Of a stretch of DNA of 64,000 bases, positions 2,157 through 54,419 are shown piece by piece. Position 1 is the first letter of the stretch; every line of letters begins with the position of its first letter. Source of the DNA: Octopus vulgaris (taxonomy: Eukaryota); contig OX597814.1 in NCBI GenBank assembly GCA_951406725.2, forward strand, positions 195,858,001 to 195,922,000, given 5' to 3'. The notes beneath the pieces are model-generated. The model was not told the origin of the DNA and searched no databases. It saw only the letters and a list, made by a program, of their open reading frames with translations. Position numbers and translations under genes: made by a program.

Positions 2157-2276
2157 TATATATATATATATATATATATATTGGACGAGCCCAAATATTT
2201 TAAAGGTGGTGCTCCAGCATGGCCGCAGTCAAATGACTGAAACAAGTAAAAGAATAAAAGAATAAAAGAATATATG

Positions 2277-2340
<64 letters not shown>

Positions 2341-2561
2341 TCAATATAGGGTGGCAAGGAAAATTTTGTAGAATTTTATTGCCACCAGCGGCCCAGTGGG
2401 AAAAAATTAAATAGTCATAGACCATTTTTAAGTTCAACATTAACAATTAAGGAACGGCCATAATAGGCCATTCACCCACTAGAAATAACAGCCAAAGCTT
2501 CTACCGCAAATAAAGATCAATTCCGTAAACAGGAGAAAATTAAAAAAACATTTACCCTGTA

Positions 2562-2668
2562 ATTTCTTGTACGGTATACCGTTTCATCTGCTGTTTAATG
2601 GTAAACTAACCTGATTAAATTAAATCAAGCCAATCTTCCATAAGCCCTCAGATTCTTCAGCAAGAAAT
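2562..2668 (-). ncRNA. Type I hammerhead ribozyme (array A left arm; also 3053-3159 and 3544-3650)
   Basis: Reverse complement of the motif at 4052-4158. Confidence 0.85.
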
Positions 2669-4051
2669 AGCTCAAGTCGGAACAGATATTTACACGAGGC
2701 GTACCTAACCCTGCCAAGGCAATATCTGACCTAAAATTTTCAAATCGTCGCACTCGCGCCAAATTTATCGGCAGCAAATAAATATCAGCCGTCGATTCCA
2801 TTACGGAGTTAACCAAAAAATTCATAATTAATCAATATAGGGTGGCAAGGAAAATTTTGTAGAATTTTATTGCCACCAGCGGCCCAGTGGGAAAAAATTA
2901 AATAGTCATAGACCATTTTTAAGTTCAACATTAACAATTAAGGAACGGCCATAATAGGCCATTCACCCACTAGAAATAACAGCCAAAGCTTCTACCGCAA
3001 ATAAAGATCAATTCCGTAAACAGGAGAAAATTAAAAAAACATTTACCCTGTAATTTCTTGTACGGTATACCGTTTCATCTGCTGTTTAATGGTAAACTAA
3101 CCTGATTAAATTAAATCAAGCCAATCTTCCATAAGCCCTCAGATTCTTCAGCAAGAAATAGCTCAAGTCGGAACAGATATTTACACGAGGCGTACCTAAC
3201 CCTGCCAAGGCAATATCTGACCTAAAATTTTCAAATCGTCGCACTCGCGCCAAATTTATCGGCAGCAAATAAATATCAGCCGTCGATTCCATTACGGAGT
3301 TAACCAAAAAATTCATAATTAATCAATATAGGGTGGCAAGGAAAATTTTGTAGAATTTTATTGCCACCAGCGGCCCAGTGGGAAAAAATTAAATAGTCAT
3401 AGACCATTTTTAAGTTCAACATTAACAATTAAGGAACGGCCATAATAGGCCATTCACCCACTAGAAATAACAGCCAAAGCTTCTACCGCAAATAAAGATC
3501 AATTCCGTAAACAGGAGAAAATTAAAAAAACATTTACCCTGTAATTTCTTGTACGGTATACCGTTTCATCTGCTGTTTAATGGTAAACTAACCTGATTAA
3601 ATTAAATCAAGCCAATCTTCCATAAGCCCTCAGATTCTTCAGCAAGAAATAGCTCAAGTCGGAACAGATATTTACACGAGGCGTGTAAATTTTCTCCTGT
3701 TTACGGAATTGATCTTTATTTGCGGTAGAAGCTTTGGCTGTTATTTCTAGTGGGTGAATGGCCTATTATGGCCGTTCCTTAATTGTTAATGTTGAACTTA
3801 AAAATGGTCTATGACTATTTAATTTTTTCCCACTGGGCCGCTGGTGGCAATAAAATTCTACAAAATTTTCCTTGCCACCCTATATTGATTAATTATGAAT
3901 TTTTTGGTTAACTCCGTAATGGAATCGACGGCTGATATTTATTTGCTGCCGATAAATTTGGCGCGAGTGCGACGATTTGAAAATTTTAGGTCAGATATTG
4001 CCTTGGCAGGGTTAGGTACGCCTCGTGTAAATATCTGTTCCGACTTGAGCT

Positions 4052-4158
4052 ATTTCTTGCTGAAGAATCTGAGGGCTTATGGAAGATTGGCTTGATTTAA
4101 TTTAATCAGGTTAGTTTACCATTAAACAGCAGATGAAACGGTATACCGTACAAGAAAT
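4052..4158 (+). ncRNA. Type I hammerhead ribozyme with extended stem II (first of 14 plus-strand copies, every ~491 bp)
   Basis: Stem I atttcttg/caagaaat; core CTGAAGA 4060-4066; stem II atctg/cagat; GAAA 4135-4138; palindromic stem III ACGGTATACCGT; predicted GUA cleavage after 4150. Confidence 0.9.
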
Positions 4159-7100
4159 TACAGGGTAAATGTTTTTTTAATTTTCTCCTGTTTACGGAAT
4201 TGATCTTTATTTGCGGTAGAAGCTTTGGCTGTTATTTCTAGTGGGTGAATGGCCTATTATGGCCGTTCCTTAATTGTTAATGTTGAACTTAAAAATGGTC
4301 TATGACTATTTAATTTTTTCCCACTGGGCCGCTGGTGGCAATAAAATTCTACAAAATTTTCCTTGCCACCCTATATTGATTAATTATGAATTTTTTGGTT
4401 AATTCCGTAATGGAATCGACGGCTGATATTTATTTGCTGCCGATAAATTTGGCGCGAGTGCGACGATTTGAAAATTTTAGGTCAGATATTGCCTTGGCAG
4501 GGTTAGGTACGCCTCGTGTAAATATCTGTTCCGACTTGAGCTATTTCTTGCTGAAGAATCTGAGGGCTTATGGAAGATTGGCTTGATTTAATTTAATCAG
4601 GTTAGTTTACCATTAAACAGCAGATGAAACGGTATACCGTACAAGAAATTACAGGGTAAATGTTTTTTTAATTTTCTCCTGTTTACGGAATTGATCTTTA
4701 TTTGCGGTAGAAGCTTTGGCTGTTATTTCTAGTGGGTGAATGGCCTATTATGGCCGTTCCTTAATTGTTAATGTTGAACTTAAAAATGGTCTATGACTAT
4801 TTAATTTTTTCCCACTGGGCCGCTGGTGGCAATAAAATTCTACAAAATTTTCCTTGCCACCCTATATTGATTAATTATGAATTTTTTGGTTAATTCCGTA
4901 ATGGAATCGACGGCTGATATTTATTTGCTGCCGATAAATTTGGCGCGAGTGCGACGATTTGAAAATTTTAGGTCAGATATTGCCTTGGCAGGGTTGGGTA
5001 CGCCTCGTGTAAATATCTGTTCCGACTTGAGCTATTTCTTGCTGAAGAATCTGAGGGCTTATGGAAGATTGGCTTGATTTAATTTAATCAGGTTAGTTTA
5101 CCATTAAACAGCAGATGAAACGGTATACCGTACAAGAAATTACAGGGTAAATGTTTTTTTAATTTTCTCCTGTTTACGGAATTGATCTTTATTTGCGGTA
5201 GAAGCTTTGGCTGTTATTTCTAGTGGGTGAATGGCCTATTATGGCCGTTCCTTAATTGTTAATGTTGAACTTAAAAATGGTCTATGACTATTTAATTTTT
5301 TCCCACTGGGCCGCTGGTGGCAATAAAATTCTACAAAATTTTCCTTGCCACCCTATATTGATTAATTATGAATTTTTTGGTTAATTCCGTAATGGAATCG
5401 ACGGCTGATATTTATTTGCTGCCGATAAATTTGGCGCGAGTGCGACGATTTGAAAATTTTAGGTCAGATATTGCCTTGGCAGGGTTAGGTACGCCTCGTG
5501 TAAATATCTGTTCCGACTTGAGCTATTTCTTGCTGAAGAATCTGAGGGCTTATGGAAGATTGGCTTGATTTAATTTAATCAGGTTAGTTTACCATTAAAC
5601 AGCAGATGGAAACGGTATACCGTACAAGAAATTACAGGGTAAATGTTTTTTTAATTTTCTCCTGTTTACGGAATTGATCTTTATTTGCGGTAGAAGCTTT
5701 GGCTGTTATTTCTAGTGGGTGAATGGCCTATTATGGCCGTTCCTTAATTGTTAATGTTGAACTTAAAAATGGTCTATGACTATTTAATTTTTTCCCACTG
5801 GGCCGCTGGTGGCAATAAAATTCTACAAAATTTTCCTTGCCACCCTATATTGATTAATTATGAATTTTTTGGTTAACTCCGTAATGGAATCGACGGCTGA
5901 TATTTATTTGCTGCCGATAAATTTGGCGCGAGTGCGACGATTTGAAAATTTTAGGTCAGATATTGCCTTGGCAGGGTTGGGTACGCCTCGTGTAAATATC
6001 TGTTCCGACTTGAGCTATTTCTTGCTGAAGAATCTGAGGGCTTATGGAAGATTGGCTTGATTTAATTTAATCAGGTTAGTTTACCATTAAACAGCAGATG
6101 AAACGGTATACCGTACAAGAAATTACAGGGTAAATGTTTTTTTAATTTTCTCCTGTTTACGGAATTGATCTTTATTTGCGGTAGAAGCTTTGGCTGTTAT
6201 TTCTAGTGGGTGAATGGCCTATTATGGCCGTTCCTTAATTGTTAATGTTGAACTTAAAAATGGTCTATGACTATTTAATTTTTTCCCACTGGGCCGCTGG
6301 TGGCAATAAAATTCTACAAAATTTTCCTTGCCACCCTATATTGATTAATTATGAATTTTTTGGTTAATTCCGTAATGGAATCGACGGCTGATATTTATTT
6401 GCTGCCGATAAATTTGGCGCGAGTGCGACGATTTGAAAATTTTAGGTCAGATATTGCCTTGGCAGGGTTGGGTACGCCTCGTGTAAATATCTGTTCCGAC
6501 TTGAGCTATTTCTTGCTGAAGAATCTGAGGGCTTATGGAAGATTGGCTTGATTTAATTTAATCAGGTTAGTTTACCATTAAACAGCAGATGAAACGGTAT
6601 ACCGTACAAGAAATTACAGGGTAAATGTTTTTTTAATTTTCTCCTGTTTACGGAATTGATCTTTATTTGCGGTAGAAGCTTTGGCTGTTATTTCTAGTGG
6701 GTGAATGGCCTATTATGGCCGTTCCTTAATTGTTAATGTTGAACTTAAAAATGGTCTATGACTATTTAATTTTTTCCCACTGGGCCGCTGGTGGCAATAA
6801 AATTCTACAAAATTTTCCTTGCCACCCTATATTGATTAATTATGAATTTTTTGGTTAATTCCGTAATGGAATCGACGGCTGATATTTATTTGCTGCCGAT
6901 AAATTTGGCGCGAGTGCGACGATTTGAAAATTTTAGGTCAGATATTGCCTTGGCAGGGTTGGGTACGCCTCGTGTAAATATCTGTTCCGACTTGAGCTAT
7001 TTCTTGCTGAAGAATCTGAGGGCTTATGGAAGATTGGCTTGATTTAATTTAATCAGGTTAGTTTACCATTAAACAGCAGATGAAACGGTATACCGTACAA

Positions 7101-10100
7101 GAAATTACAGGGTAAATGTTTTTTTAATTTTCTCCTGTTTACGGAATTGATCTTTATTTGCGGTAGAAGCTTTGGCTGTTATTTCTAGTGGGTGAATGGC
7201 CTATTATGGCCGTTCCTTAATTGTTAATGTTGAACTTAAAAATGGTCTATGACTATTTAATTTTTTCCCACTGGGCCGCTGGTGGCAATAAAATTCTACA
7301 AAATTTTCCTTGCCACCCTATATTGATTAATTATGAATTTTTTGGTTAATTCCGTAATGGAATCGACGGCTGATATTTATTTGCTGCCGATAAATTTGGC
7401 GCGAGTGCGACGATTTGAAAATTTTAGGTCAGATATTGCCTTGGCAGGGTTAGGGTACGCCTCGTGTAAATATCTGTTCCGACTTGAGCTATTTCTTGCT
7501 GAAGAATCTGAGGGCTTATGGAAGATTGGCTTGATTTAATTTAATCAGGTTAGTTTACCATTAAACAGCAGATGAAACGGTATACCGTACAAGAAATTAC
7601 AGGGTAAATGTTTTTTTAATTTTCTCCTGTTTACGGAATTGATCTTTATTTGCGGTAGAAGCTTTGGCTGTTATTTCTAGTGGGTGAATGGCCTATTATG
7701 GCCGTTCCTTAATTGTTAATGTTGAACTTAAAAATGGTCTATGACTATTTAATTTTTTCCCACTGGGCCGCTGGTGGCAATAAAATTCTACAAAATTTTC
7801 CTTGCCACCCTATATTGATTAATTATGAATTTTTTGGTTAACTCCGTAATGGAATCGACGGCTGATATTTATTTGCTGCCGATAAATTTGGCGCGAGTGC
7901 GACGATTTGAAAATTTTAGGTCAGATATTGCCTTGGCAGGGTTAGGTACGCCTCGTGTAAATATCTGTTCCGACTTGAGCTATTTCTTGCTGAAGAATCT
8001 GAGGGCTTATGGAAGATTGGCTTGATTTAATTTAATCAGGTTAGTTTACCATTAAACAGCAGATGAAACGGTATACCGTACAAGAAATTACAGGGTAAAT
8101 GTTTTTTTAATTTTCTCCTGTTTACGGAATTGATCTTTATTTGCGGTAGAAGCTTTGGCTGTTATTTCTAGTGGGTGAATGGCCTATTATGGCCGTTCCT
8201 TAATTGTTAATGTTGAACTTAAAAATGGTCTATGACTATTTAATTTTTTCCCACTGGGCCGCTGGTGGCAATAAAATTCTACAAAATTTTCCTTGCCACC
8301 CTATATTGATTAATTATGAATTTTTTGGTTAACTCCGTAATGGAATCGACGGCTGATATTTATTTGCTGCCGATAAATTTGGCGCGAGTGCGACGATTTG
8401 AAAATTTTAGGTCAGATATTGCCTTGGCAGGGTTAGGTACGCCTCGTGTAAATATCTGTTCCGACTTGAGCTATTTCTTGCTGAAGAATCTGAGGGCTTA
8501 TGGAAGATTGGCTTGATTTAATTTAATCAGGTTAGTTTACCATTAAACAGCAGATGAAACGGTATACCGTACAAGAAATTACAGGGTAAATGTTTTTTTA
8601 ATTTTCTCCTGTTTACGGAATTGATCTTTATTTGCGGTAGAAGCTTTGGCTGTTATTTCTAGTGGGTGAATGGCCTATTATGGCCGTTCCTTAATTGTTA
8701 ATGTTGAACTTAAAAATGGTCTATGACTATTTAATTTTTTCCCACTGGGCCGCTGGTGGCAATAAAATTCTACAAAATTTTCCTTGCCACCCTATATTGA
8801 TTAATTATGAATTTTTTGGTTAACTCCGTAATGGAATCGACGGCTGATATTTATTTGCTGCCGATAAATTTGGCGCGAGTGCGACGATTTGAAAATTTTA
8901 GGTCAGATATTGCCTTGGCAGGGTTAGGTACGCCTCGTGTAAATATCTGTTCCGACTTGAGCTATTTCTTGCTGAAGAATCTGAGGGCTTATGGAAGATT
9001 GGCTTGATTTAATTTAATCAGGTTAGTTTACCATTAAACAGCAGATGAAACGGTATACCGTACAAGAAATTACAGGGTAAATGTTTTTTTAATTTTTCTC
9101 CTGTTTACGGAATTGATCTTTATTTGCGGTAGAAGCTTTGGCTGTTATTTCTAGTGGGTGAATGGCCTATTATGGCCGTTCCTTAATTGTTAATGTTGAA
9201 CTTAAAAATGGTCTATGACTATTTAATTTTTTCCCACTGGGCCGCTGGTGGCAATAAAATTCTACAAAATTTTCCTTGCCACCCTATATTGATTAATTAT
9301 GAATTTTTTGGTTAATTCCGTAATGGAATCGACGGCTGATATTTATTTGCTGCCGATAAATTTGGCGCGAGTGCGACGATTTGAAAATTTTAGGTCAGAT
9401 ATTGCCTTGGCAGGGTTAGGTACGCCTCGTGTAAATATCTGTTCCGACTTGAGCTATTTCTTGCTGAAGAATCTGAGGGCTTATGGAAGATTGGCTTGAT
9501 TTAATTTAATCAGGTTAGTTTACCATTAAACAGCAGATGAAACGGTATACCGTACAAGAAATTACAGGGTAAATGTTTTTTTAATTTTCTCCTGTTTACG
9601 GAATTGATCTTTATTTGCGGTAGAAGCTTTGGCTGTTATTTCTAGTGGGTGAATGGCCTATTATGGCCGTTCCTTAATTGTTAATGTTGAACTTAAAAAT
9701 GGTCTATGACTATTTAATTTTTTCCCACTGGGCCGCTGGTGGCAATAAAATTCTACAAAATTTTCCTTGCCACCCTATATTGATTAATTATGAATTTTTT
9801 GGTTAACTCCGTAATGGAATCGACGGCTGATATTTATTTGCTGCCGATAAATTTGGCGCGAGTGCGACGATTTGAAAATTTTAGGTCAGATATTGCCTTG
9901 GCAGGGTTAGGTACGCCTCGTGTAAATATCTGTTCCGACTTGAGCTATTTCTTGCTGAAGAATCTGAGGGCTTATGGAAGATTGGCTTGATTTAATTTAA
10001 TCAGGTTAGTTTACCATTAAACAGCAGATGAAACGGTATACCGTACAAGAAATTACAGGGTAAATGTTTTTTTAATTTTCTCCTGTTTACGGAATTGATC

Positions 10101-10662
10101 TTTATTTGCGGTAGAAGCTTTGGCTGTTATTTCTAGTGGGTGAATGGCCTATTATGGCCGTTCCTTAATTGTTAATGTTGAACTTAAAAATGGTCTATGA
10201 CTATTTAATTTTTTCCCACTGGGCCGCTGGTGGCAATAAAATTCTACAAAATTTTCCTTGCCACCCTATATTGATTAATTATGAATTTTTTGGTTAACTC
10301 CGTAATGGAATCGACGGCTGATATTTATTTGCTGCCGATAAATTTGGCGCGAGTGCGACGATTTGAAAATTTTAGGTCAGATATTGCCTTGGCAGGGTTA
10401 GGTACGCCTCGTGTAAATATCTGTTCCGACTTGAGCTATTTCTTGCTGAAGAATCTGAGGGCTTATGGAAGATTGGCTTGATTTAATTTAATCAGGTTAG
10501 TTTACCATTAAACAGCAGATGAAACGGTATACCGTACAAGAAATTACAGGGTAAATGTTTTTTTAATTTTCTCCTGTTTACGGAATTGATCTTTATTTGC
10601 GGTAGAAGCTTTGGCTGTTATTTCTAGTGGGTGAATGGCCTATTATGGCCGTTCCTTAATTG

Positions 10663-10703
<41 letters not shown>

Positions 10704-10708
<5 letters not shown>

Positions 10709-10916
10709 TAATCCAAACATGAAAACACAAAGAGAAAACACAACAACGCGAGGACGTGGAACAAATATAGTATCATTGGACGCTCAGGAAGGAAGGGAAG
10801 ATGCAGGGTTTAACGTTTCGAGCGGAGCTCTTCGTCAGAAACATAGGAAAAGGAAAGATCCAGAGAAGGGAAGACGGAGGAAAAAAAATCGCCAACGGTA
10901 AACGCGCGGTCACATT

Positions 10917-10920
<4 letters not shown>
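10704..10920 (-). mobile_element. Short Penelope pLTR-like fragment in (TA)n with minimal hammerhead
   Basis: Minus strand 10808-10842: gttt-CTGACGA-a-GAGC-tcc-GCTC-GAAA-cg-TT-aaac; (TA)n on both sides. Confidence 0.75.
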
Positions 10921-10964
<44 letters not shown>

Positions 10965-11186
10965 TCAATATAGGGTGGCAAAAGAAATTTTGTAGAATTC
11001 TTTTGCCACCAGCGGCCTAGTGGGAAAAAATTTAAATAGTCATAAACCATTTTTAAGTTCAACATCACAATCAAGGAACGGCCATAATAGGCCATTCACC
11101 CACTAGAAATAACAGCCAAAAGCTTTAACCGCAAAATAACGTCAATTCCGTAAACCAGGAGAAAATTAAAAAACATTTACCCTGTA

Positions 11187-11293
11187 ATTTCTTAGACGAT
11201 GCACCGTTTCATCTACTGTTTAATGGAAAACTAACCTGATTAAATTAAATCAAGCCAATCTACCATAGGCCCTTAGATTCATCAGTAAGAAAT
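11187..11293 (-). ncRNA. Type I hammerhead ribozyme, subfamily B left arm
   Basis: Reverse complement of the 11879-11985 motif. Confidence 0.85.
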
Positions 11294-11878
11294 AGCCAAG
11301 CCGGAACAGATATATTTCACGAGGCATTCTCGTTGCTACCTCGTCAATATCTGACCTAAAATTTTCAAATCGTCGCACTCGCACCAAATTTATCGGCAGC
11401 AAATAAATATAAGCCGCCGATTCCATTACGGAATTAACCAGAAAATTCATAATTAATCAATATAGGGTGGCAAAAGAAATTTTGTAGAATTCTTTTGCCA
11501 CCAGCGGCCTAGTGGGAAAAAATTTAAATAGTCATTGACGTTATTTTGCGGTTAAAGCTTTTGGCTGTTATTTCTAGTGGGTGAATGGCCTATTATGGCC
11601 GTTCCTTGATTGTGATGTTGAACTTAAAAATGGTTTATGACTATTTAAATTTTTTCCCACTAGGCCGCTGGTGGCAAAAGAATTCTACAAAATTTCTTTT
11701 GCCACCCTATATTGATTAATTATGAATTTTCTGGTTAATTCCGTAATGGAATAGGCGGCTTATATTTATTTGCTGCCGATAAATTTGGCGCGAGTGCGAC
11801 GATTTGAAAATTTTAGGTCAGATATTGACGAGGTAGCAACGAGAATGCCTCGTGAAAAATATCTGTTCCGGCTTGGCT

Positions 11879-11985
11879 ATTTCTTACTGATGAATCTAAG
11901 GGCCTGTGGTAGATTGGCTTGATTTAATTTAATCAGGTTAGTTTTCCATTAAACAGTAGATGAAACGGTGCATCGTCTAAGAAAT
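11879..11985 (+). ncRNA. Type I hammerhead ribozyme, subfamily B right arm
   Basis: atttctta-CTGATGA-atcta...tagat-GAAA-cggtgcatcg-TC-taagaaat; canonical CUGAUGA core and GUC site. Confidence 0.9.
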
Positions 11986-12313
11986 TACAGGGTAAATGTT
12001 TTTTAATTTTCTCCTGGTTTACGGAATTGACGTTATTTTGCGGTTAAAGCTTTTGGCTGTTATTTCTAGTGGGTGAATGGCCTATTATGGCCGTTCCTTG
12101 ATTGTGATATATATATATATATATATATAAATGCAAGTTGTATTATCTTTCACGGACGAATACTGGCAAAGGAAGGGTCGTTCGTTCTGTATCAAAGCAT
12201 TTCGTTATCACTGGTGCCGGCAGAACTTCTAATCAGGAAATGGATGGTGGGAAACTTTTAGTTGTGCGTGCGGACGAATACTAATCTCAAATTGAAGTGT
12301 AGCACAAATATAT

Positions 12314-12525
12314 AAGGCAGCGATCCGGCAGAACCGTTAGTATGCCGGGCAAAATGCTTCGCTGCATTTCGTCCGTTTCTACGTTCTGAGTTCAAATTTC
12401 GCTTAGGTCGACTTTGCCTTTCATCTTTTCGACATCGACAAAATAAGCACCAACTGAGTAGTGGGGCCGATGTAATTGATTCATCCCACTCCTAAAATTG
12501 CTAGCCTTGTGCTAAAATTCGAAAT
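12314..12525 (+). mobile_element. tRNA-derived SINE family 1, diverged
   Basis: aaggcagcgatccggcagaaccgttag...gttctgagttcaaatt...gactttgcctttcatc matches many copies in the window. Confidence 0.8.
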
Positions 12526-13199
12526 TAATCAATTAACTAATCAATTAACTAATCAATTCCAGTTCATAACTAATGAGTATTTTGTTGACTTTGCATTTAT
12601 CAGAGACTGAACCGATCTCCATAACCAGTGTGATTTAAGGAAGTATATCCTGGTATGTTTCTACGACAACGAGCAGATTCTGCCGTAACAACTCTTTTAG
12701 ATTATATAAAATATTGAAATTTATTCGCTCTTACCTTGGTCTTTTATTCTTGCAAACCACCCAATCTAAAAATCTAAACAAATTAAGGTACAAACATTGA
12801 TTGTCATTCACTGTCAAAAGAAGTAACGCTGTAGTGTCTTTCACTCTCGATGAAGATGGCGATCAAAAAGAAATCTTTTTTTTTTCTTTTTAAGCAGTTT
12901 ATATATTCACTTCATGTATTTACGATCATCTTGACAGTTTCTCTGGTTTGATAATACGTTCAGACACTTAACTACTTGGCAAGCTTTGTCATTGGAGGCT
13001 CAAGGGAATTGTGATGACGTTGAAGTTGGTTTCGTAAAATTGATAATATAAAACCCCCATTAGTTTAAAATATTTATTATTGGAATCACCAGAGGAAAAC
13101 CAAAAAGCAAATAAAACAACTAGACCTAATAGTATAGAGGTAATAAAAAAAGCACTTCTTTTTTTAAGAATGCTTTTAACGTCTCTTCGTCCTTCGGAA

Positions 13200-13600
13200 T
13201 GACAAATAAATATTTAAGCATTGAGAAATGTTCTGATTGTCAGTGATTCTACTGATTGCTGGGATTAATGAAAAGTTCGGAAGTAAAGCTTGTAAAGAAC
13301 CACCACTCATGCTGGTATACTTATTGGTCAACGGTGACCGGAGAAAGATCTATGTTAGATTTTTGTAGAAAACATTTAGCAAGGAAAAGCGACGGTGTTG
13401 AAGAGATTCAACTCTCTGGTCTCATCCAGAGAGTTTGCAACCAAGTGAATGTGGATAATTTCCAGTGACACTTGGCCTGGTGGTACTATCGGGGAAGCAT
13501 TGCATTTTTGAGACACACAACCGGTGATATTCGAAATGCACGTAGAGCACTCGGGACAAGTCATTCCTGCTGTCATGCTGATCCTCTATTTGAAGGATTC
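13200..13600 (-). pseudogene. Possible decayed retroviral-type (Gypsy/Ginger-like) integrase fragment
   Basis: CPEC followed by PIVPPGQVSLEIIHIHL resembles the zinc-finger/core boundary of rve integrases; heavily disrupted. Confidence 0.35.
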
Positions 13601-17089: not shown

Positions 17090-17656
17090 TTTCTACTCTA
17101 GGCATAAGGCCCGAAATTTTTGGGGGGAGGAGGCCAGTCGATTAGATTAACCGGTACTTAATTTATCGACCCCGAAAGGATGGAAGGCAAAGTCGACCTC
17201 GGCGGAATTTGAACTCAGAACGTAACAGCAGACGAAATACCTATTTCTTTACTACCCACAAGGGGCTAAACATAGAGAGGACAATCAAGGACAGACAAAC
17301 GGATTAAGTCGATTATATCGACCCCAGTGCGTAACTGGTACTTATTTAATTGACCACGAAATGATGAAAGGCAAAGTCGACTTCGGCGGAATTTGAACTC
17401 AGAACGTAGCGGCAGACGAAATACCTATTTCTTTATTACCCACAAGGGGCTAAACACAGAGGGGACAAACAAGGACAGACATAGGTATTAAGTCGATTAC
17501 ATCGACCCCAGTGCGTAACTGGTACTTAATTTATCGACCCCGAAAGGATGAAAGGCAAAGTTGACCTCGGCGGAATTTGAACTCAGAACGTAGCGGCAGA
17601 CGAAATACCGCTAAGCATTTCGCCCGGCGTGCTAACGTCTCTGCCAGCTCGCCGCC
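17090..17656 (-). mobile_element. SINE family 1, internally multimerised
   Basis: Three repeats of the atcgaccccgaaaggatgaaaggcaaagtcgacc module; head gctcgccgcct at the right end. Confidence 0.85.
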
Positions 17657-19592: not shown

Positions 19593-19601
<9 letters not shown>

Positions 19602-20202
19602 GTGAATTGAAGAAATGGAGCTGAACGAAGATTGAACAGAAATCGTTTTATTTCATTCTACACGTGTTTCGAAAGGCACAATTTACCAAAATCCGATTGA
19701 ATAATGAGACCATATTGTGTCTTTCTCTTCAGGAAGAAATAGGAAATCCGTTGGAAAAAACAAAAACAGAACAGAGGCGGAGCAAAACAAATCGAACTAG
19801 GCTCCTAAGAGCCCATGGCCAAACTCTTGGCCATGGGCTCTTAGGAGCCTAGTTCGATTTGTTTTGCTCCGCCTCTGTTCTTTTTTTGTTTTTTCCAACG
19901 GATTTCCTATTTCTTCCTGAAGAGAAAGACACAATATGGTCTCATTATTCAATCGGATTTTGGTAAATTGTGCCTTTCGAAACACGTGTAGAATGAAATA
20001 AAACGATTTCTGTTCAATCTTCGTTCAGCTCCATTTCTTCAATTCACCAATAATATTAAAATTCAATTATCCGCACCAACGCACGGTTGCAACACCATAT
20101 GGTTGTACCTCCAACCGTGCTGTCTTCTGCTGTGATTTTTGCTACCAAGGTATCGGTTAAACTTTTGATTCATCTGCTACAAGATTATTCATCTTTCTAT
20201 TT

Positions 20203-20205
<3 letters not shown>
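19593..20205. mobile_element. Fold-back element (230-bp near-perfect arms 19593-20056, 4-nt loop) with head-to-head hammerheads, in (TA)n
   Basis: Only one arm mismatch seen; the right arm continues ~150 bp to the next (TA)n. Confidence 0.85.
19908..20000 (+). ncRNA. Type I hammerhead ribozyme (mirror copy on minus at 19649-19741)
   Basis: tatttcttc-CTGAAGA-gaaagacacaat...attgtgcctttc-GAAA-cacgtg-TA-gaatgaaata; palindromic stem III ACACGTGT. Confidence 0.85.
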
Positions 20206-20288
<83 letters not shown>

Positions 20289-21807: not shown

Positions 21808-23059
21808 TATATATATATATATATATTGCTAAATTTTTCTTGAGAATATTTCTTAGTGGTAAGACCATAGTGGATCTATTTCTAGCATAAGGGTGTCCAC
21901 ATAGTGATCCATCCATATACATTGTATTGCAGCTAACTGTTGTAGCTATGTTCTATATTCTATCCAATAGTTAACATACGTATCATATTAATATTCAACA
22001 GGAAGAAAGCAAATATATGTCATTACGATAACCGCCCTAAGCAAAATAATAACAATCGCAGCTACGTTCCGCCTTACAGCTACTGTAACAGCTTGCACAA
22101 ATTTATATATAGGTGTACGAGTGTATGTGTATGTGTGTGTATTTCAAGATCATAGTTATGACGTTATTGTTACAGGTCTACTAGAACACGTGACAAAATA
22201 CTGTTCAGGTTTCAAATCCCCGCTGAGCTCGATTTTTTTTTCTTTCTTTTATCTTTCTGATATCAATAGAATAACTCTCGGTCATGTTTTGAAATAGCTT
22301 CGATCCACAGTTCTTCCCCGCATTACACACAATGCGCCGTTTTGCTTTAATCAATGTAAGGAATTTAATATTGAATCGAACAGACAACTGTGAGAATGAT
22401 TGCGGTAAAAGAGGCCATCCTGCAGTGTCGTGACAATTACACAGTTTCAATTCTAGGTTGAGCTAAGTTCATTTGACTTACGTTATTATTTCTGCCCTAC
22501 GGGAGATTATAAACGTGACAAGCCTTACTTAGTATTAACGTGCTCTGGCACGGCTTAAGGCGTGATAAAGAAGACAAAGAGAGCATTTAAACAAATGAAA
22601 TAACTCGTAACTCCCAAATAATTGCAACTTTATTACTACTCATGAGAGACCTCAATGCAATGTAAGTCTGGTACCCGTGAGTAGTGAGGGCGAGTGGCCT
22701 GGTGGTTAGGGTGTTGCACACACGAATACGAGATCTGGGTTCGATTCTCGCACCGGGCGGAGATTTTTGTTCTTAGGCAAATCACATCGTGTTAGGCTGT
22801 TCTACGATCATGATCATTTCAATATTTGTCGTCTGACACATCGTGCACCTATAAAGGCAAATGTCAATTTGATGGAGGGAGTGAACTAATGTACAGTACA
22901 TGCATTTATTTGATCGTGATAAACAAATCATCTGTGCAATTATAGCAACACGAAAATTGGGTAATTCTCATTCTTTTGGTACTATTTGAGAGTTAAGCGA
23001 AAAGAGAAAAAATGAAAAAAACATAAGACATGCGCTCTAAACTAGTGAATCAGTATATA

Positions 23060-23473
23060 TTTCCTTACTGCCCACAAGCGGCTAAACATAGAGGGGACAA
23101 ACAAGGACAGGCAAAGGGATTAAGTCAATTACATCGACACCAGTGCGTAAATGGTACTTATTTTATCGACCCCGAAAGGATAAAAGGCAAAGTCGACCTC
23201 GGCAGAATTTGAACTCGGAACGTAACGACAGACGAAATACCTATTTCTTTACTACCCACAAGGGGCTAAAGACAGAGGGAACAAACAAGGATAGACAATT
23301 GGATTAAGTCGATTATATCGATCCCAGTGCGTAACTGGTACTTATTTAATCGACCCCGAAAGGATGAAAGGCAAAGTCGACCACGGCGGAATTTGAACTC
23401 AGAACGTAACGGCAGACGAAACACCGCTAAGCATTTCGCCCGGCGCGCTAACGTTTCTGCCAGCTCGTCGCCT
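23060..23473 (-). mobile_element. SINE family 1 (dimeric)
   Basis: Matches other copies. Confidence 0.85.
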
Positions 23474-30026: not shown

Positions 30027-31368
30027 AGGCGGTGAGCTGGCAGAAACGTTAGCACGCCGGGCAAAATGCATAGCGGTATTTCGTTTTCCTTTACGTTCTG
30101 CGTTCAAATTCCGCCGAGGTCGAATTTGCCTTTCATCCTTTCGGAGTCCATAAATTAAGTACCAGTTACGCACTGGGGTTGATGTAATCGACTTAATCCC
30201 TTTGTCCTTGTTTGCCCCCTCTATGTTTAGCCCCTTGTGGGCAATAAAGAAATAAGAAATGCCCCCATGTTAGATCTCACTTTCTAGCCGTTACAGCTTA
30301 CGATGGTCTCTCGCAGCAACTTCTGTATCTATCAATGGCCGATATGCATCTGAAAATAAGTCTTAGATTTCTATTAGGACTGGAAACTACTTCAGCTTTG
30401 ACAGCATTTTGACGCTTTGCAATGTACAAATGTGGTTCCTACTGGAGTCCTTAAGGCGGCGAGCTGGCAGAAACGTTAGCACGACGGGCGAAATGCTTAG
30501 CGTTATTTCGACTGCCATTACGTTCTGAGTTCAAATTCCGCCGAGGTCGACTTTGCCTTTCATCCTTTCGGGGTCGATTAAATGAGTACCAGTTACGCTC
30601 TGGGGTCGGTATAATCGAGTTAATCCGTTTGTCGGTTCTTGTTTTTTCCCCTCTGTGTTTAGCTCCTTGTGGGCAATAAAGAAATATATAGGAGATTTCA
30701 TGAGATCTTAGGATCGTGCCGCTGCCATACACACACGCATCCACGCACGCACACGTACACACATTTAGACTGCATACGAAAGGAGGCTATTTAAATGATT
30801 GCCTAACGCCACTATCTAAAATCTGGCCATTATCATCTCTTTATTTCCCTTCTCGTTCTACAACGACCTCTACTCTCCTAAACAGTCCTAGCTGTATTCA
30901 GCATCTCTCCATCCTGACATATGCACTTTATCGATATCTTCCTCTCTTCTCATGCCTATTTCTTTACTACCCACAAGGGGCTAAGCACAGAAAGGACAAA
31001 CAAGGACAGACAAACGGATTAAGTCGATTACATCGACCCCCAGTGCGTAACTGGTACTTAATTTATCGACCCCGAAAGGATGAAAGGCAAAGTCAGCCTC
31101 GGCGGAATTTGAACTTGGAACATAATGACAGATGAAATACTTATTTCTTTTACTACACACAAGGGGCTAAGCACAGAGGGGGACAAACGAGGACAGACAA
31201 ACGGATTAAGTCGATTACATCGACCCCCAGTGCGTAACTGGTATTTATTTTATCGACCCCGAAAGGATGAAAGGCAAAGTCGACCTCGGCAGAATTTGCA
31301 CTCAGAACGTAACGGCTGACGAAATACTGCTAAGCATTTCGCCCGGCGTGCTAACAATTCTGCCAGCT
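30027..31368. mobile_element. Three SINE family 1 copies (30027-30255 +, 30453-30685 +, 30958-31368 -)
   Basis: Head and core motifs as above. Confidence 0.85.
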
Positions 31369-37524: not shown

Positions 37525-37940
37525 AAGGTGGCGAGCTGGCAGAACCGTTAGTACGCCGGGAGAAATGCTTAGCAGTATTTCGTCTGCCGCTACGTTCTGA
37601 GTTCAAATTCCGCCGAGGTCGACTTTGCCTTTCATCCTTTCGGGGTCGATTAAATAAGTACCAGTTACGCACTGGGGTCGATATAATCGACTTAATCCGT
37701 TTGTCTACCCTTGTTTGTCCTCTCTGTGTGTAGCCCCTTGTGGGTAGTAAAGAAATAGGTATTTCGTCTGCCGCTACTTTCTAAGTTCAAATTCCGCCGA
37801 GGCTGACTTTGCCTTTCATCCTTTCGGGGTCGATTAAATAAGTACCAGTAACGCACTGGGGTCGATATAATCGACTTAATCCGTTTTCTGTCCTTGTTAG
37901 TCCGCTTTGTGTGTAGGCCCTTGTGGGCAGTAAAGAAATA
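37525..37940 (+). mobile_element. SINE family 1 dimer inserted in hAT transposase
   Basis: Target-site duplication aaactttataaaagagt on both sides. Confidence 0.9.
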
Positions 37941-38469
37941 GAAAACTTTATAAAAGAGTGCATGATGGAAACAGCAAATGACTTGTTTTCCTGAAAAAGC
38001 TAACATATTTGGCTGTATCAGCCTTTCAACAAGTTCAGTTGTGCGGAGAATAGAAGAACTTGGGGAGAATATACAGTTACAAATACATGAGAAAGCTTAG
38101 AAATGTTTGTGGTATTCTGTTGCAATAGATGATTCTACTGATCCCTCTAGTACGTCACAATGTCTTGTCTTAATTACAATTGTGAGATTATAGAAGAAAT
38201 GGCATACGTTTGCAGTATACATCGAACAAAAACTGGAGAAATATTTTTATAGAGGCGCAGAAAATTTTGCAAAACTATAACGTTCAGTGGAAGCAGCTTC
38301 AGTGTATTACAGTTGATGGAGGTAAAAACATGGCAGGAGTGAGGAAGGATTTTGTAGGGCAGATCCAGACCAAGTTGGAGGAGCTTCAACTTCCGAAAGC
38401 ACTGTTTATACACTGCATTATACATCAGCAAGCACTCTGACGAAAATACTTAGATATTTCTTGCGTATT

Positions 38470-46766: not shown

Positions 46767-47349
46767 TGATGTAAGCGTTGGAATTGGAAATTATATTGAA
46801 ATATATTTTAGAGACGTGGCTGTATGGAAAGAAGTTGGTTTCCGGACCACATCGTATCAGGTTCAGTCCCACTCAGTGGTACATTGCGTAGGTGTGCCTC
46901 GGCCGACCAAAGCCTTGTGAGTGGATTGAGCATACAGATACTGAAATATTCCTGTCGTATATATGTATGTATATATATATATATATATATTTTTTTTCAG
47001 GATTAAATAAAAAGAAGACAACAAACCGAGAATATGTCGTATCTATCTATCTATCTCTACTCCCTCTCTTTCTATATATATATAATTCACAAAAAGCGTG
47101 TAGTAAATAAACGAACGAACATATACTAAATACAGAGGCGAACGGAAGGCACTCAAGGTCAACAACTCACCATTACTCCTTGGGTAGAGTGTCAAACGCA
47201 ATTTCGGCCATTATCGATAATATTGATTCCACTCTGGAGGCATCGGCAACAAACCGATAGTGGACGGATGAGGAACAAAACAAAAAAAAAACAGAATAAA
47301 GGCTTAGGGCCAGACGTAGACAACAATTAATAATAATAATAATAATAAC

Positions 47350-47381
<32 letters not shown>

Positions 47382-47382
<1 letters not shown>

Positions 47383-47884
47383 TCCAGTACATACAGAACC
47401 ATCAAAGTCAATAAACCAGATATTGTTGTGAAAGACCAAAACAATAAAGTTTGCTTATTGATCGACATGAGCATCCCCTGTGATCATAATATCTCGGCGA
47501 AAGAGTTTGACAAGCTCAGAAAATATAAAGGCCTGCTCATTGAAATTGAGAAAATGTGGCATCTCAAGGCGGTTACAATACCAGTGATCGTAGGAGCACT
47601 AGGAATGATCAAGAAGGGAACCGAAAATTATATGAGAATGATCCCTGGCTTACCATCCCTGCAAGAAGTGCAAAAGATTGTTTTAACTGGTACATCACAC
47701 GTATTGAGAAAAGCATTGTCGATGTGAGAACTATTACTACCCATGTATTAACTTAAAAAAAAAAAAAACTAACTAGTGAGTTTAGTTTAATGGCCTACCA
47801 ATGTAAACTATGAGTTTCTTGGCCCTAGGAGTCGGGAAGACACTCGGCAAGAAATGGATGCAAATTTGAAAGAAGAAAAAAAAA

Positions 47885-47886
<2 letters not shown>
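47382..47886 (+). mobile_element. 5'-truncated R4/Dong-like non-LTR retrotransposon (restriction-like endonuclease C-terminus plus 3' UTR) in (TAA)n
   Basis: KPDIVVKD...LLIDMSIPCDHNISAKEFDKLRKY...IPVIVGALG motif; (AAT)n on both flanks. Confidence 0.85.
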
Positions 47887-47930
<44 letters not shown>

Positions 47931-48782
47931 TAATAATAATAATAATTCATATACAACAAAAATCGCCTTGGGGCTGCAAGAAAAGTCAAAACTGAGTAAC
48001 GCAAAGGTGGAATGTAAACTGTCCTAAAGGACTATAGACACGGGAGAGGTAGAACGAGGAGCATAGAAAATTGTGACCAGTCCGGTCAAAGGCAAAGCGA
48101 AAAAAAATGACACGCGGGGTGTTGGCTTTAAGGGTATTGCGAAAAGCCTAGTTGGAAGCCCAACATTCCGAGTTCTTTTACAGACTGGCTGAAATAAGTA
48201 TGTTAATCTGAGAGGTCAGTATGTGGAATAGGATCATAATTAACTGATCCTCCTGTATTTTCTTTTACCCAAAGCCAGGAACTTTTCCTTAACCCCTCAC
48301 ATACATACATATATACATACATCTATGTGTGTGTGTGTGTGTAGTAATTTCATTTGGGTGTTAATGCTGCTGTCTTCCTATTGAGCTAATCCACAGGTAC
48401 AGGCTATCAGACATATGGTAATCTGAAGATCGTTTGTTATATGCAATACATACCTGAATCTCCACACATATCCTCAAAATTTCTACAATTATAACCTAGG
48501 AGAATGCAGTTCACAAGTCCTTTGATTTCATAGATTTTACAACAGAAAATCTCGCAGATGAGTATTGTTATATCATTATGCAACAAATGACGCATGAGGT
48601 GTCCATTATTCGGAATCATGCACAATAGAAGACCTTTTCCCCCTCATTCTTCATTCATTCCGATTAACTTGGTTAAATTTTCAAATACAAAGGATTTCCA
48701 TTACAATTAAGCAGTTTTAGATATGAAAACAAAAAAAAACAACAAAGAAAATATAGATGAAATGAATTAAGCAATAAAATAT

Positions 48783-53429: not shown

Positions 53430-53840
53430 GAATAATATATTTCTAAATTTCTCGGACAGATTTATGCAGTAGCAGCAAATGTGACAGTCCCATAAAAGGG
53501 AAGAATGCTACTGTTATTTAGCTCTAGGAAACACCGTTTCTCGTTGAACTTGAGACAGTTCCTGTGTTCTTATGTTTCTAAAGTGGAGGCAAGTACCTCC
53601 ACCCAGCAAAGCCAGTACCCAGAGACTAGTTTCAGAGTAATCGCTCATCATCAGCCACACTACTCCAGACTGATGATGAGAAATGACTCTGAAACTAGTC
53701 TCTGGTGCTGGCTTGGCTGGGCGGAGGTGCTTGTCTCCACTTTGAAAACGTAAGGACACAGGAAATGTATCAAGTCTAACAGGAAACGGTGTTTCCTAGG
53801 GCTAAATAATGGTAGCATTCTTCCCTTTTATGGGACTGTC
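53430..53840. mobile_element. Fold-back element (arms 53482-53841) with head-to-head hammerheads, inserted in mariner
   Basis: Imperfect ~175-bp inverted arms; candidate TSD aaaaccaaac (53420-53429) / aaaacgaaac (53841-53850). Confidence 0.8.
53665..53705 (+). ncRNA. Minimal type I hammerhead ribozyme (mirror copy on minus at 53619-53656)
   Basis: ccaga-CTGATGA-tgagaaatgactct-GAAA-ctag-TC-tctgg; palindromic stem III ACTAGT; GUC site. Confidence 0.85.
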
Positions 53841-54419
53841 AAAACGAAACAGTGCGGAGAAGTATTGACGTTCCTTGAAAGCATTGCACAAAATTTGTAG
53901 AAAAAAAAAGTGTACATCGTGGGTCAGTATTAAAGGGGTGTAAATCTCACACGATAAAGTCAGACCAGAAATTGTTCACTCAGGAGAATATGTTGGCACA
54001 AAATATAGAAATTTTGTCTTATCCTCCGTATTCTTCTGATTTTATTCTATGTGACTCTTACCTTTTCAAATCATTGCAACGTTATTCAGAGGTGCAGAGA
54101 ATAAAAAAAATACCAAGTCTTTAACTGCTTCAAAAAACTGATAAAACAGATGAGATTTATACTCGAGAATCAAAATTTGCATAATTTATGAGACGGTATT
54201 ATCAATAATGAGGTGAAATATTATCTAGAATAAATATATGAATTTAGAACAAAAGAGCATTTGCTTTTTGCCCAAGCAGAAATGGGACCAGATTTTTTCA
54301 ACATAGTACATAGACTAATTATGGACACATTATATTTTTACTATTTTATTCCACTCAAGATGTAGCTTATGAAAACATGAGCATGAACGGTTTTCTACAT
54401 AGTGAAATGTGCAACTATT

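Follow-up and report, generated by a model that had tools for sequence, protein, structure and literature searches.

A tandem hammerhead ribozyme repeat of Octopus vulgaris whose insertions carry the footprint of Hydra-like Penelope elements

Two insertions of a tandem hammerhead ribozyme repeat, A and B, lie in a 64-kb stretch of the Octopus vulgaris genome (contig OX597814.1; hereafter, the window). The window holds 19 copies of the ribozyme: 14 on the plus strand (3688-10667), three on the minus strand (2336-3684), and one per strand at 10957-12107. Judged by its sequence, the element is a retrozyme that lacks long terminal repeats (non-LTR retrozyme), carries one type I hammerhead per unit, and falls into many subfamilies. 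Its insertions bear a countable footprint made up of the target, two start sites, and opposite ends in pairs. Intact Hydra-like Penelope elements of this genome leave an identical one, from which we infer that the retrozyme is probably mobilised non-autonomously by a (TA)n-targeting, Hydra-like Penelope protein via RNA circles formed after self-cleavage. How animal retrozymes move is an open question, for which a 2020 paper names Penelope elements as candidates (PMC7229834); a 2026 preprint supports this with co-occurrence and homology in vertebrates but defers the mechanism to later work (10.64898/2026.07.22.740005). The matching footprint specifies the RNA, the start sites, and candidate enzymes for an in vitro test.

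Insertions A and B each consist of two back-to-back arms between (TA)n runs (Table 1), and the (TA)n on both sides would mask any target-site duplication. Across 118 independent insertions drawn from the 2.8-Gb genome, 176 of 191 arm 3' ends fell at one of two fixed sites separated by about 105 nt, a short end at +125 to +136 from the predicted cut (90 ends) and a long end at +230 to +245 (86 ends), with 15 elsewhere; 180 of the 191 adjoined (TA)n. The 194 inner 5' arm ends, by comparison, were spread over the whole unit. Both ends could be seen in 77 two-armed insertions, of which 65 paired one short with one long end, 12 had one odd end, and none were short+short or long+long. This pairing held in 22 of 26 cases within the 36 insertions that were picked blind to the core. 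A one-ended tail and an inverted, 5'-truncated copy are marks of Penelope elements (10.1101/2021.04.23.441226), in which the tail is the stretch between two internal start sites of the reverse transcriptase (RT) and the enzyme extends both strands (PMC11167929). Within this group, the Hydra clade inserts into (TA)n and carries DKT and CxCx5C motifs (10.1101/2021.04.23.441226).

The octopus genome contains intact elements with these properties. Autonomous family D has at least 60 stop-free copies (60 of the 62 matches listed), most with a 727-aa frame, and its intact open reading frame (ORF) carries DKT, CxCx5C, and C-terminal GIY-YIG motifs next to a minimal hammerhead in the same element; these motifs were read by eye from the translation, and the clade label 'Hydra-like' is a motif-based one. 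All 35 family D termini fell at two sites about 70 nt apart beside (TA)n, and all four inverted pairs were short+long. The family D loci (L193-L222; e.g., L195:1501-3630, plus strand) look young, which makes this family a candidate source of active enzyme. A Penelope protein from the genome gave an 88% match to an Octopus sinensis entry over 30% of the query. In family C, 12 of 13 inverted pairs were short+long with a tail of about 150 nt, in a sample whose query favoured long ends, and in copies elsewhere the upstream region contains RT and GIY-YIG motifs; a Pfam scan of two family C proteins and two ORFs of the window came back empty. Thus the retrozyme shares with a Hydra-like partner the insertion into (TA)n and the two fixed 3' ends with an inverted arm, and an intact Hydra-like element is present, while homology to a pseudo-long terminal repeat (pLTR) was not found; family J, a further Hydra-like family, entered this comparison with its pLTR only partly covered.

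We observed related elements at several other places. An inverted pair of family C 3' ends sits in (TA)n at window positions 19597-20207, each with a type I hammerhead that has a long stem II, an 8-nt palindromic stem III, and GUA; the plus copy lies at about 19909-19998, the short end at about 20056, and the long end at 20207. Family H is Hydra-like, and its hammerhead combines a long stem II with a palindromic stem III and GUA; family J has many stop-free matches, a 3' untranslated region longer than 1.8 kb, and a CUGAAGA motif where the examined stretch ends. Loci of these additional Hydra-like families include L253:1060-1160, L043:944, L254, L257, and L261-L263. A 16/17 match between lineage A and family C at stem I and the start of the core was considered as a sign of kinship and set aside (E=0.36, not kept in lineage F).

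An exact 22-mer of the stem II extension had 2,715 genomic matches, against none for the reversed control, and this copy number is a lower bound because lineage F, which is 82-85% identical to A, lacks that 22-mer. The repeat was also detected in sequencing runs of two further organisms. Units are tandem, 484-494 bp long, and have a GC content of 36-37%, and no ORF of at least 100 aa occurs within 2447-13421. The family thus has the features by which retrozymes are recognised: dispersed tandem repeats with a hammerhead in each unit, non-coding sequence with GC below 50%, and a predicted circle of a few hundred bases that pairs with itself (circular fold z=-6.0 to -7.2 in three lineages). The analysed sample comprised 36 insertions that are all those among the first 100 of the 2,715 listed 22-mer matches (contig 1, 0-95 Mb), plus others found as best matches to A, B, or F or by a pattern that demands an intact 5' core and an N7 other than A, and which are therefore biased. 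Parsing of 407 units gave 107 ribozyme haplotypes and left eight truncated or damaged matches unparsed.

The earlier note on this DNA, made from the two copies A (4052-4158) and B (11879-11985), had claimed that compensatory changes between subfamilies A and B validate the ribozyme fold. The changes it named are present: the closing pair of stem I is G4059-C4151 in A and A11886-U11978 in B, the fifth pair of stem II is G4071-C4130 in A and A11898-U11957 in B, the core differs only at N7 (A4064 versus U11891) and H17 (A4150 versus C11977), and both copies have a self-complementary 12-nt stem III, which in B includes one G-U type. A third two-sided change (A-U to G-C at 4143/4144, which pairs only in a dimer), a swap of an A-A for a U-U mismatch at 4083/4118, and the prolongation of stem II into a 63-nt extension with an 18-bp hairpin had gone unnoticed. 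Two sequences are nonetheless insufficient to establish the fold, since the probability that the 11 core bases would be unchanged is 0.39 for this pair alone and that of at least two doubly changed pairs among 37 is 0.057 (0.0035 for at least three). The copies differ at 12 positions within 4052-4158, or 11.2% in the ribozyme against 8.2% in the flanks, so the ribozyme overall is not more conserved than its surroundings. A and B are two of many lineages, with 16 haplotypes found in at least two insertions. Copy A has the type I hammerhead as its minimum free energy (MFE) structure (z=-4.6), whereas copy B folds stably (z=-4.0) into a monomer minimum-energy shape that is not a hammerhead. An Rfam scan of the window returned no hits at the gathering score; the best match below threshold was to RF00008 (12.9 bits against a gathering score of 48.5, E=7.4, with a 56-nt insert), and this miss reflects the limited detection range of the model, not a biological requirement.

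To measure covariation across the family, we aligned with MAFFT the 30 replicated haplotypes, 16 present in at least two insertions and 14 in at least two units of one insertion. Of the 1,110 stem cells (30 haplotypes, 37 pairs), 98.6% were paired, and eight of the 37 pairs showed two-sided change (four in stem I, of which F accounts for three; another three in stem II; and one dimer-only pair). Controls in which partners were slid by 1-3 columns gave 31-44% paired cells and zero to two two-sided pairs. Because the events are few, mostly one or two per pair, we added a tree-preserving null in which each 3' partner was exchanged for a randomly drawn column matched in majority base and in variability; this gave a mean of 1.2 and a maximum of five two-sided pairs in 4,000 draws. 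Across the family, the signal thus exceeds chance by far. The pairwise alignment behind this null misplaced stem I of lineage F (columns 4053-4056) and added false broken pairs, and the MAFFT count is the cleaner one. RNAalifold recovered the same three helices without guidance, so that three helices surround the core, with stem I open and with covariation, as in a hammerhead. Twelve further pairs vary on one side only, nearly all retaining a G-U on the sense strand, and in the extension hairpin eight of 18 pairs are variable, all one-sidedly and nearly all keeping G-U. The sense circle also folds more stably than its antisense counterpart (-142 versus -96, -147 versus -95, and -140 versus -120 kcal/mol in three lineages). 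We conclude that the fold is a type I hammerhead and, because of the sense-strand wobbles and the more stable sense circle, that selection acts on the RNA of the ribozyme strand. Covariation over the whole unit was also considered and found weak outside the ribozyme, as only two of the five two-sided pairs of a 12-unit circular consensus lie outside its helices.

The core, numbered C3 U4 G5 A6 N7 G8 A9 / G12 A13 A14 A15.1 / U16.1 H17, agrees with the Rfam hammerhead consensus. At its 11 invariant sites no change was common to two of the 118 insertions, and three single insertions were damaged; N7 takes all four bases, while H17 is A or C and never G. In the unbiased set (35 insertions) all eight parsimony steps in the core fell on N7 (seven) and H17 (one), a 1 in 78 outcome by sites. 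Only lineage-level changes, common to at least two insertions, are informative on core selection. Changes private to one unit occur in the core at 1.4/kb (five in 3,492 unit-bases) and elsewhere at 2.3/kb (283 in 122,455), and this near-background rate indicates that copies decay after insertion and that selection is visible only on spreading lineages. The inference in the earlier note that selection acts on RNA catalysis rather than on the DNA repeat was therefore half borne out: the wobbles and the freedom of N7 and H17 show that the RNA of the ribozyme strand is selected, but covariation demonstrates structure and not catalysis. Its proposed counter-test, a larger alignment with freely mutating core positions and no covariation, was mis-aimed, because the core of single copies decays about as fast as elsewhere.

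Further observations concern individual core sites. N7 is the most variable of 491 sites (seven steps in 35 insertions, 11 in 86), and its changes exceed those of other unpaired sites; a hot spot, recombination, and selection are candidate explanations. In a lineage F insertion (L231/L232) both tandem units carry a C3-to-G change, which must have preceded the duplication or been copied twice. One lineage A unit (5525-5632) has an additional G directly before GAAA, private to that array copy.

In 115 of the 118 insertions, stem III and its loop together form a 12-nt palindrome, and in fold predictions on isolated 115-nt stretches without tertiary terms, the lowest-energy cofold of two units was a double hammerhead in 28 of the 30 haplotypes. 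The monomer hammerhead exceeded a probability of 0.5 in five A-type haplotypes only and stayed below 0.15 in the other 25. These predictions suggest that the palindromic stem III favours the double hammerhead. Palindromic stem III and cleavage as a dimer are known in animal hammerheads (PMC4209133, PMC7229834), and mussel retrozymes are described without the usual contacts between the loops of stems I and II (PMC7229834); stem II here runs into an internal loop and a long hairpin.

The following sequence of steps would account for these data. Tandem transcripts would cut themselves, mainly as double hammerheads held together by the 12-nt palindrome, into unit-length RNAs, and a host ligase would close these into circles, as in mussel, coral, and axolotl retrozymes. 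A Penelope RT-endonuclease would cut both strands of a (TA)n site, and reverse transcription would begin at two fixed internal sites, one per strand, and run past the ribozyme site into several units, leaving two back-to-back arms of which only one has the tail of about 105 nt. Rolling-circle copying is likely. Only copies with a working ribozyme would found new lineages, which would conserve the core and stems, and the inserted copies would decay as their arrays were reshaped by DNA-level duplication.

Several observations weigh against this account. By blastn, A, B, and F had no significant match to the parts of families C, D, H, and J and one decayed family that were compared (best E=0.03). 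Cleavage in the octopus is predicted only, and in vitro cleavage was seen in one of nine predicted Xenopus retrozyme dimers (10.64898/2026.07.22.740005). Truncation of 5' ends at the cut was considered as a sign of cleavage in vivo and rejected, as five ends against 2.8 expected lay within 3 nt (P=0.15); arm 5' ends at -3 to +16 of the cut numbered 14 against 7.9 expected (P=0.03), in a window chosen post hoc. The invariance of the core relative to the rest of the unit reached P=0.074 (35 unbiased insertions), 0.036 (86), and 0.042 (118), values that are weak because about three quarters of the other unit sites are invariant as well. Pair 10.1-11.1 is loose (A-U 97, G-U nine, A-C nine, and U-U one; n=116), where a natural U-U is known (PMC3088659), the dimer-only pair is A-C in three of 118 insertions, and the fifth pair of stem II is A-A in two. 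In about nine of 71 arrays of at least three units, variants recur with a period of 2-4 units, in some cases on a single arm; array length is thus not purely a rolling-circle product, and the pattern points to later DNA duplication or multimeric templates. Lastly, editing on both strands and contigs that span the cut, both described below, are also expected from read-through of inverted arms.

The last two points bear on an alternative in which the same element is mobilised by Penelope without circles: long linear read-through transcripts of the arrays are copied, the ribozyme does no more than trim them, and the arrays lengthen mainly through unequal exchange of DNA. It draws further support from the anole Penelope protein, which used mainly uncut RNA and for which ribozyme mutants had no effect on insertion (PMC11167929), and from the 2026 preprint, which favours local amplification by unequal crossover (10.64898/2026.07.22.740005). 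Against it stand the strong lineage-level selection on the core, which requires cleavage to matter for spread, the folding of the whole unit as a stable circle, and the many young arrays of 8-13 units that are near-uniform across both arms. Of the 71 arrays, 16 have a variant that every unit carries and that no other sampled insertion shows, 12 of them on both arms, and these both-arm variants fit one template or one unsampled source. We judge linear templates unlikely, though not strikingly so. Arrays with a period of 2-4 units are L133, L047, L162, L135, L176, L192, L128, and L166, and in the A array of the window columns 3912 and 4014 show all four combinations of their variants.

Evidence on RNA came from 14 runs of four studies that we guess to be RNA (none is recorded as such), which contained 44-64% of the sampled repeat words, and from contigs of two probable RNA runs (X1 and X2) compared with those of two DNA-like runs, which may come from a different animal. 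An X1 contig (depth 23) shows A>G at eight places where it is absent or nearly absent from the DNA-like runs, and at four of these G occurs in none of about 400 genomic units. Loose ends in X1, inspected by eye, include a 25-nt stretch of the ribozyme strand with six A>G changes, one of them at A15.1, and runs of T>C that correspond to editing of the opposite strand. This pattern fits ADAR hyper-editing of double-stranded transcripts from inverted arms, and hyper-editing in octopus is among the strongest reported, with repeats as its main target (PMC5625713). The data thus weakly indicate that the repeat is transcribed and A-to-I edited on both strands. Unedited contigs cross the predicted cut (depth 187 in X1 and 5 in X2), which is expected of circles and of uncut RNA alike, and no contig end lay at the cut site in the RNA-like runs compared.

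A different alternative is a viroid-like circle with no detectable relation to its helper, primed by a dimeric Hydra-type Penelope enzyme at two fixed positions on a single circle, one per DNA strand, with an ADAR-edited template that feeds heritable A-to-G changes. Such a scheme would yield the short+long rule (65/65), the both-arm variants (12/71), the A>G excess over T>C, and perhaps the hypervariable N7. The excess is confined to internal, lineage-forming branches (47 A>G against 24 T>C, P=3e-5 for base counts), and is absent from terminal branches (17 versus 20) and private changes (27 versus 28). We set aside ADAR as the source of the lineage changes, because tolerance of wobble pairs also predicts an A>G bias; 5'-G depletion was not seen (13/64 versus 28/128 in the background), nor was any clearly hyper-edited genomic unit. 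On balance, we hold this version to be doubtful, and a little more so than linear templates.

Retention of the ribozyme for a host function, such as a regulatory circular RNA or an ADAR decoy, rather than for self-propagation could explain why four studies have probable RNA runs with the repeat, why it also occurs in two other organisms, and why reads are hyper-edited, yet the thousands of young dispersed copies, their cores decaying after insertion, and the confinement of conservation to spreading lineages make it very improbable. Selection is most simply understood as acting for the element's own spread. Slightly more remote is the possibility that the compensatory changes arose by template switching of DNA or cDNA between inverted-repeat arms, without an RNA catalyst being under selection. 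Switching is in keeping with the many inverted repeats of the unit and with a branch on which two neighbouring stem II pairs changed at once, but it would yield perfect Watson-Crick copies, whereas the 12 one-sided pairs are nearly all G-U on the sense strand; moreover, it cannot account for an unpaired invariant core around a hypervariable N7, and the partners of stem I are 92 nt apart across a three-way junction. Least credible of all is mobilisation by a LINE-type (long interspersed nuclear element) retrotransposon, for although LINEs are left open as candidates (PMC7229834), LINE fragments occur within the window, and no Penelope partner was found by sequence match, the two internal starts, one-ended tail, and inverted second arm are characteristic of Penelope elements and recur in families C and D, and neither poly(A) nor a shared LINE 3' end was seen at the arm ends.

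We therefore favour Penelope-mediated insertion of circle-derived copies as the probable account. Non-LTR retrozymes with circular RNAs are described from coral, mussel, and axolotl, with Penelope helpers proposed (PMC7229834). Like them, the octopus element is non-coding and tandem, has one type I hammerhead per unit and GC below 50%, and forms a self-paired predicted circle; dimer-dependent cleavage is reported in axolotl and only predicted here. It differs in its unit of 484-494 bp (170-400 nt in theirs), in its 63-nt stem II extension and 12-nt palindromic stem III (1-2 bp in theirs), and in the (TA)n target, two fixed ends, and inverted arms, which the portions of that paper considered here do not describe. 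The study of Xenopus retrozymes (10.64898/2026.07.22.740005) reached the same conclusion of Penelope dependence, and our unit lies inside its range of 51-972 bp. Its evidence is co-occurrence and pLTR homology (31 vertebrates, three insects, and one coral), whereas ours is the insertion footprint and the link to the Hydra clade, without pLTR homology; the words 'tail', 'octopus', and 'mollus' do not occur in its main text.

Hydra-clade Penelope-like elements (PLEs) share with the retrozyme the (TA)n target, the one-ended tail, and the inverted 5'-truncated copy, and they carry a hammerhead near the 3' end (10.1101/2021.04.23.441226); octopus families C and H likewise share the long-stem-II hammerhead, palindromic stem III, and GUA. 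The retrozyme departs from these PLEs in having no ORF, a pure tandem unit, and no sequence match to the families examined, and its tail of about 105 nt compares with 30-40 bp in typical PLEs (10.1101/2021.04.23.441226). The anole Poseidon element PAc (PMC11167929) resembles it in that two internal RT starts set the tail, both strands are cut and extended, and the target is AT-rich; PAc, however, is autonomous, belongs to a different clade, and shows no strand preference of starts in vitro, whereas arms here never share an end type (0/65). Cave-cricket pDo500 (PMC2837043) is also a tandem hammerhead unit of about 500 bp for which compensatory stems and a conserved core were argued, but it is treated as satellite DNA across species, in contrast to dispersed young insertions with a transposition footprint in one genome. 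An Rfam scan reported 235 hammerheads in the giant squid (PMC6962438). Our literature search found no paper on an octopus retrozyme, although the supplements of PMC7229834 and the 2026 preprint could list a cephalopod case. The kind of element and the covariation argument are thus already known, and what goes beyond routine is the tie of the footprint to Hydra-like enzymes, the opposite-end pairing, and the link to editing. The short+long rule constrains how Penelope enzymes insert, and the family amounts to a natural hammerhead mutagenesis across many young lineages, missed by Rfam, in an animal with very high RNA editing.

Table 1. Retrozyme features in the window (window coordinates; cut sites and folds are predicted)
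Feature	Position	Strand	Remarks
Type I hammerhead, lineage A	4052..4158	+	First of 14 plus copies (starts 4052, 4543 ... 10438); from sequence and MFE fold
Lineage A stem I	4052-4059/4151-4158	+	
Lineage A CUGANGA	4060-4066	+	
Lineage A stem II	4067-4071/4130-4134	+	
Lineage A GAAA	4135-4138	+	
Lineage A stem III, 12-nt palindrome	4138-4149	+	4 bp and tetraloop as monomer; 12 bp between two units
Lineage A H17	4150	+	Predicted cut between 4150 and 4151
Stem II extension	4072..4129	+	Internal loop, then 4-bp + 14-bp hairpin (4079-4122)
Hairpin followed by short 3' end site	4248..4281	+	About +131 from cut
Tail of about 105 nt	4282..4387	+	G+C hairpin (4334-4370); closes at long 3' end site, about +236
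Insertion A, right arm	3688..10667	+	14.2 tandem 491-bp units; 5'-truncated at 3688, short 3' end at 10667
Insertion A, left inverted arm	2336..3684	-	2.7 units; ribozyme starts 3650, 3159, 2668; long 3' end 2336
(TA)n target, insertion A left flank	2270..2337		
(TA)n target, insertion A right flank	10666..10704		
(TA)n target, insertion B left flank	10921..10959		
Insertion B, left inverted arm	10957..11539	-	Long 3' end 10957; hammerhead 11293-11187
Insertion B, right arm	11534..12107	+	Short 3' end, then (TA)n
Type I hammerhead, lineage B	11879..11985	+	Predicted cut between 11977 and 11978

The window holds other repeats as well. A second dispersed family forms tandem dimers of 184-187 bp (17148-17609, 23058-23425, 30957-31328, and 37575-37941), in which pattern scans found no hammerhead core. 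A non-LTR 3' fragment at 47330-47950, flanked by (TAA)n on both sides, encodes a C-terminus resembling a PD..D endonuclease (47380-47727) and had no Pfam hit. At about 53480-53850, in a stretch that we take to be decayed and transposase-like, a back-to-back inverted pair carries minimal hammerhead motifs (53658 on the plus and 53666 on the minus strand; 6-nt palindromic stem III), with a relative at L102:5390. Other hammerhead-like motifs in the flanks of the sampled loci (L038:2581, L247:410, L221, L230:252, L148:723, L237:2349, L175:2379, L099:5833, and L240:3169) suggest that the genome contains many more ribozyme-bearing repeat families.

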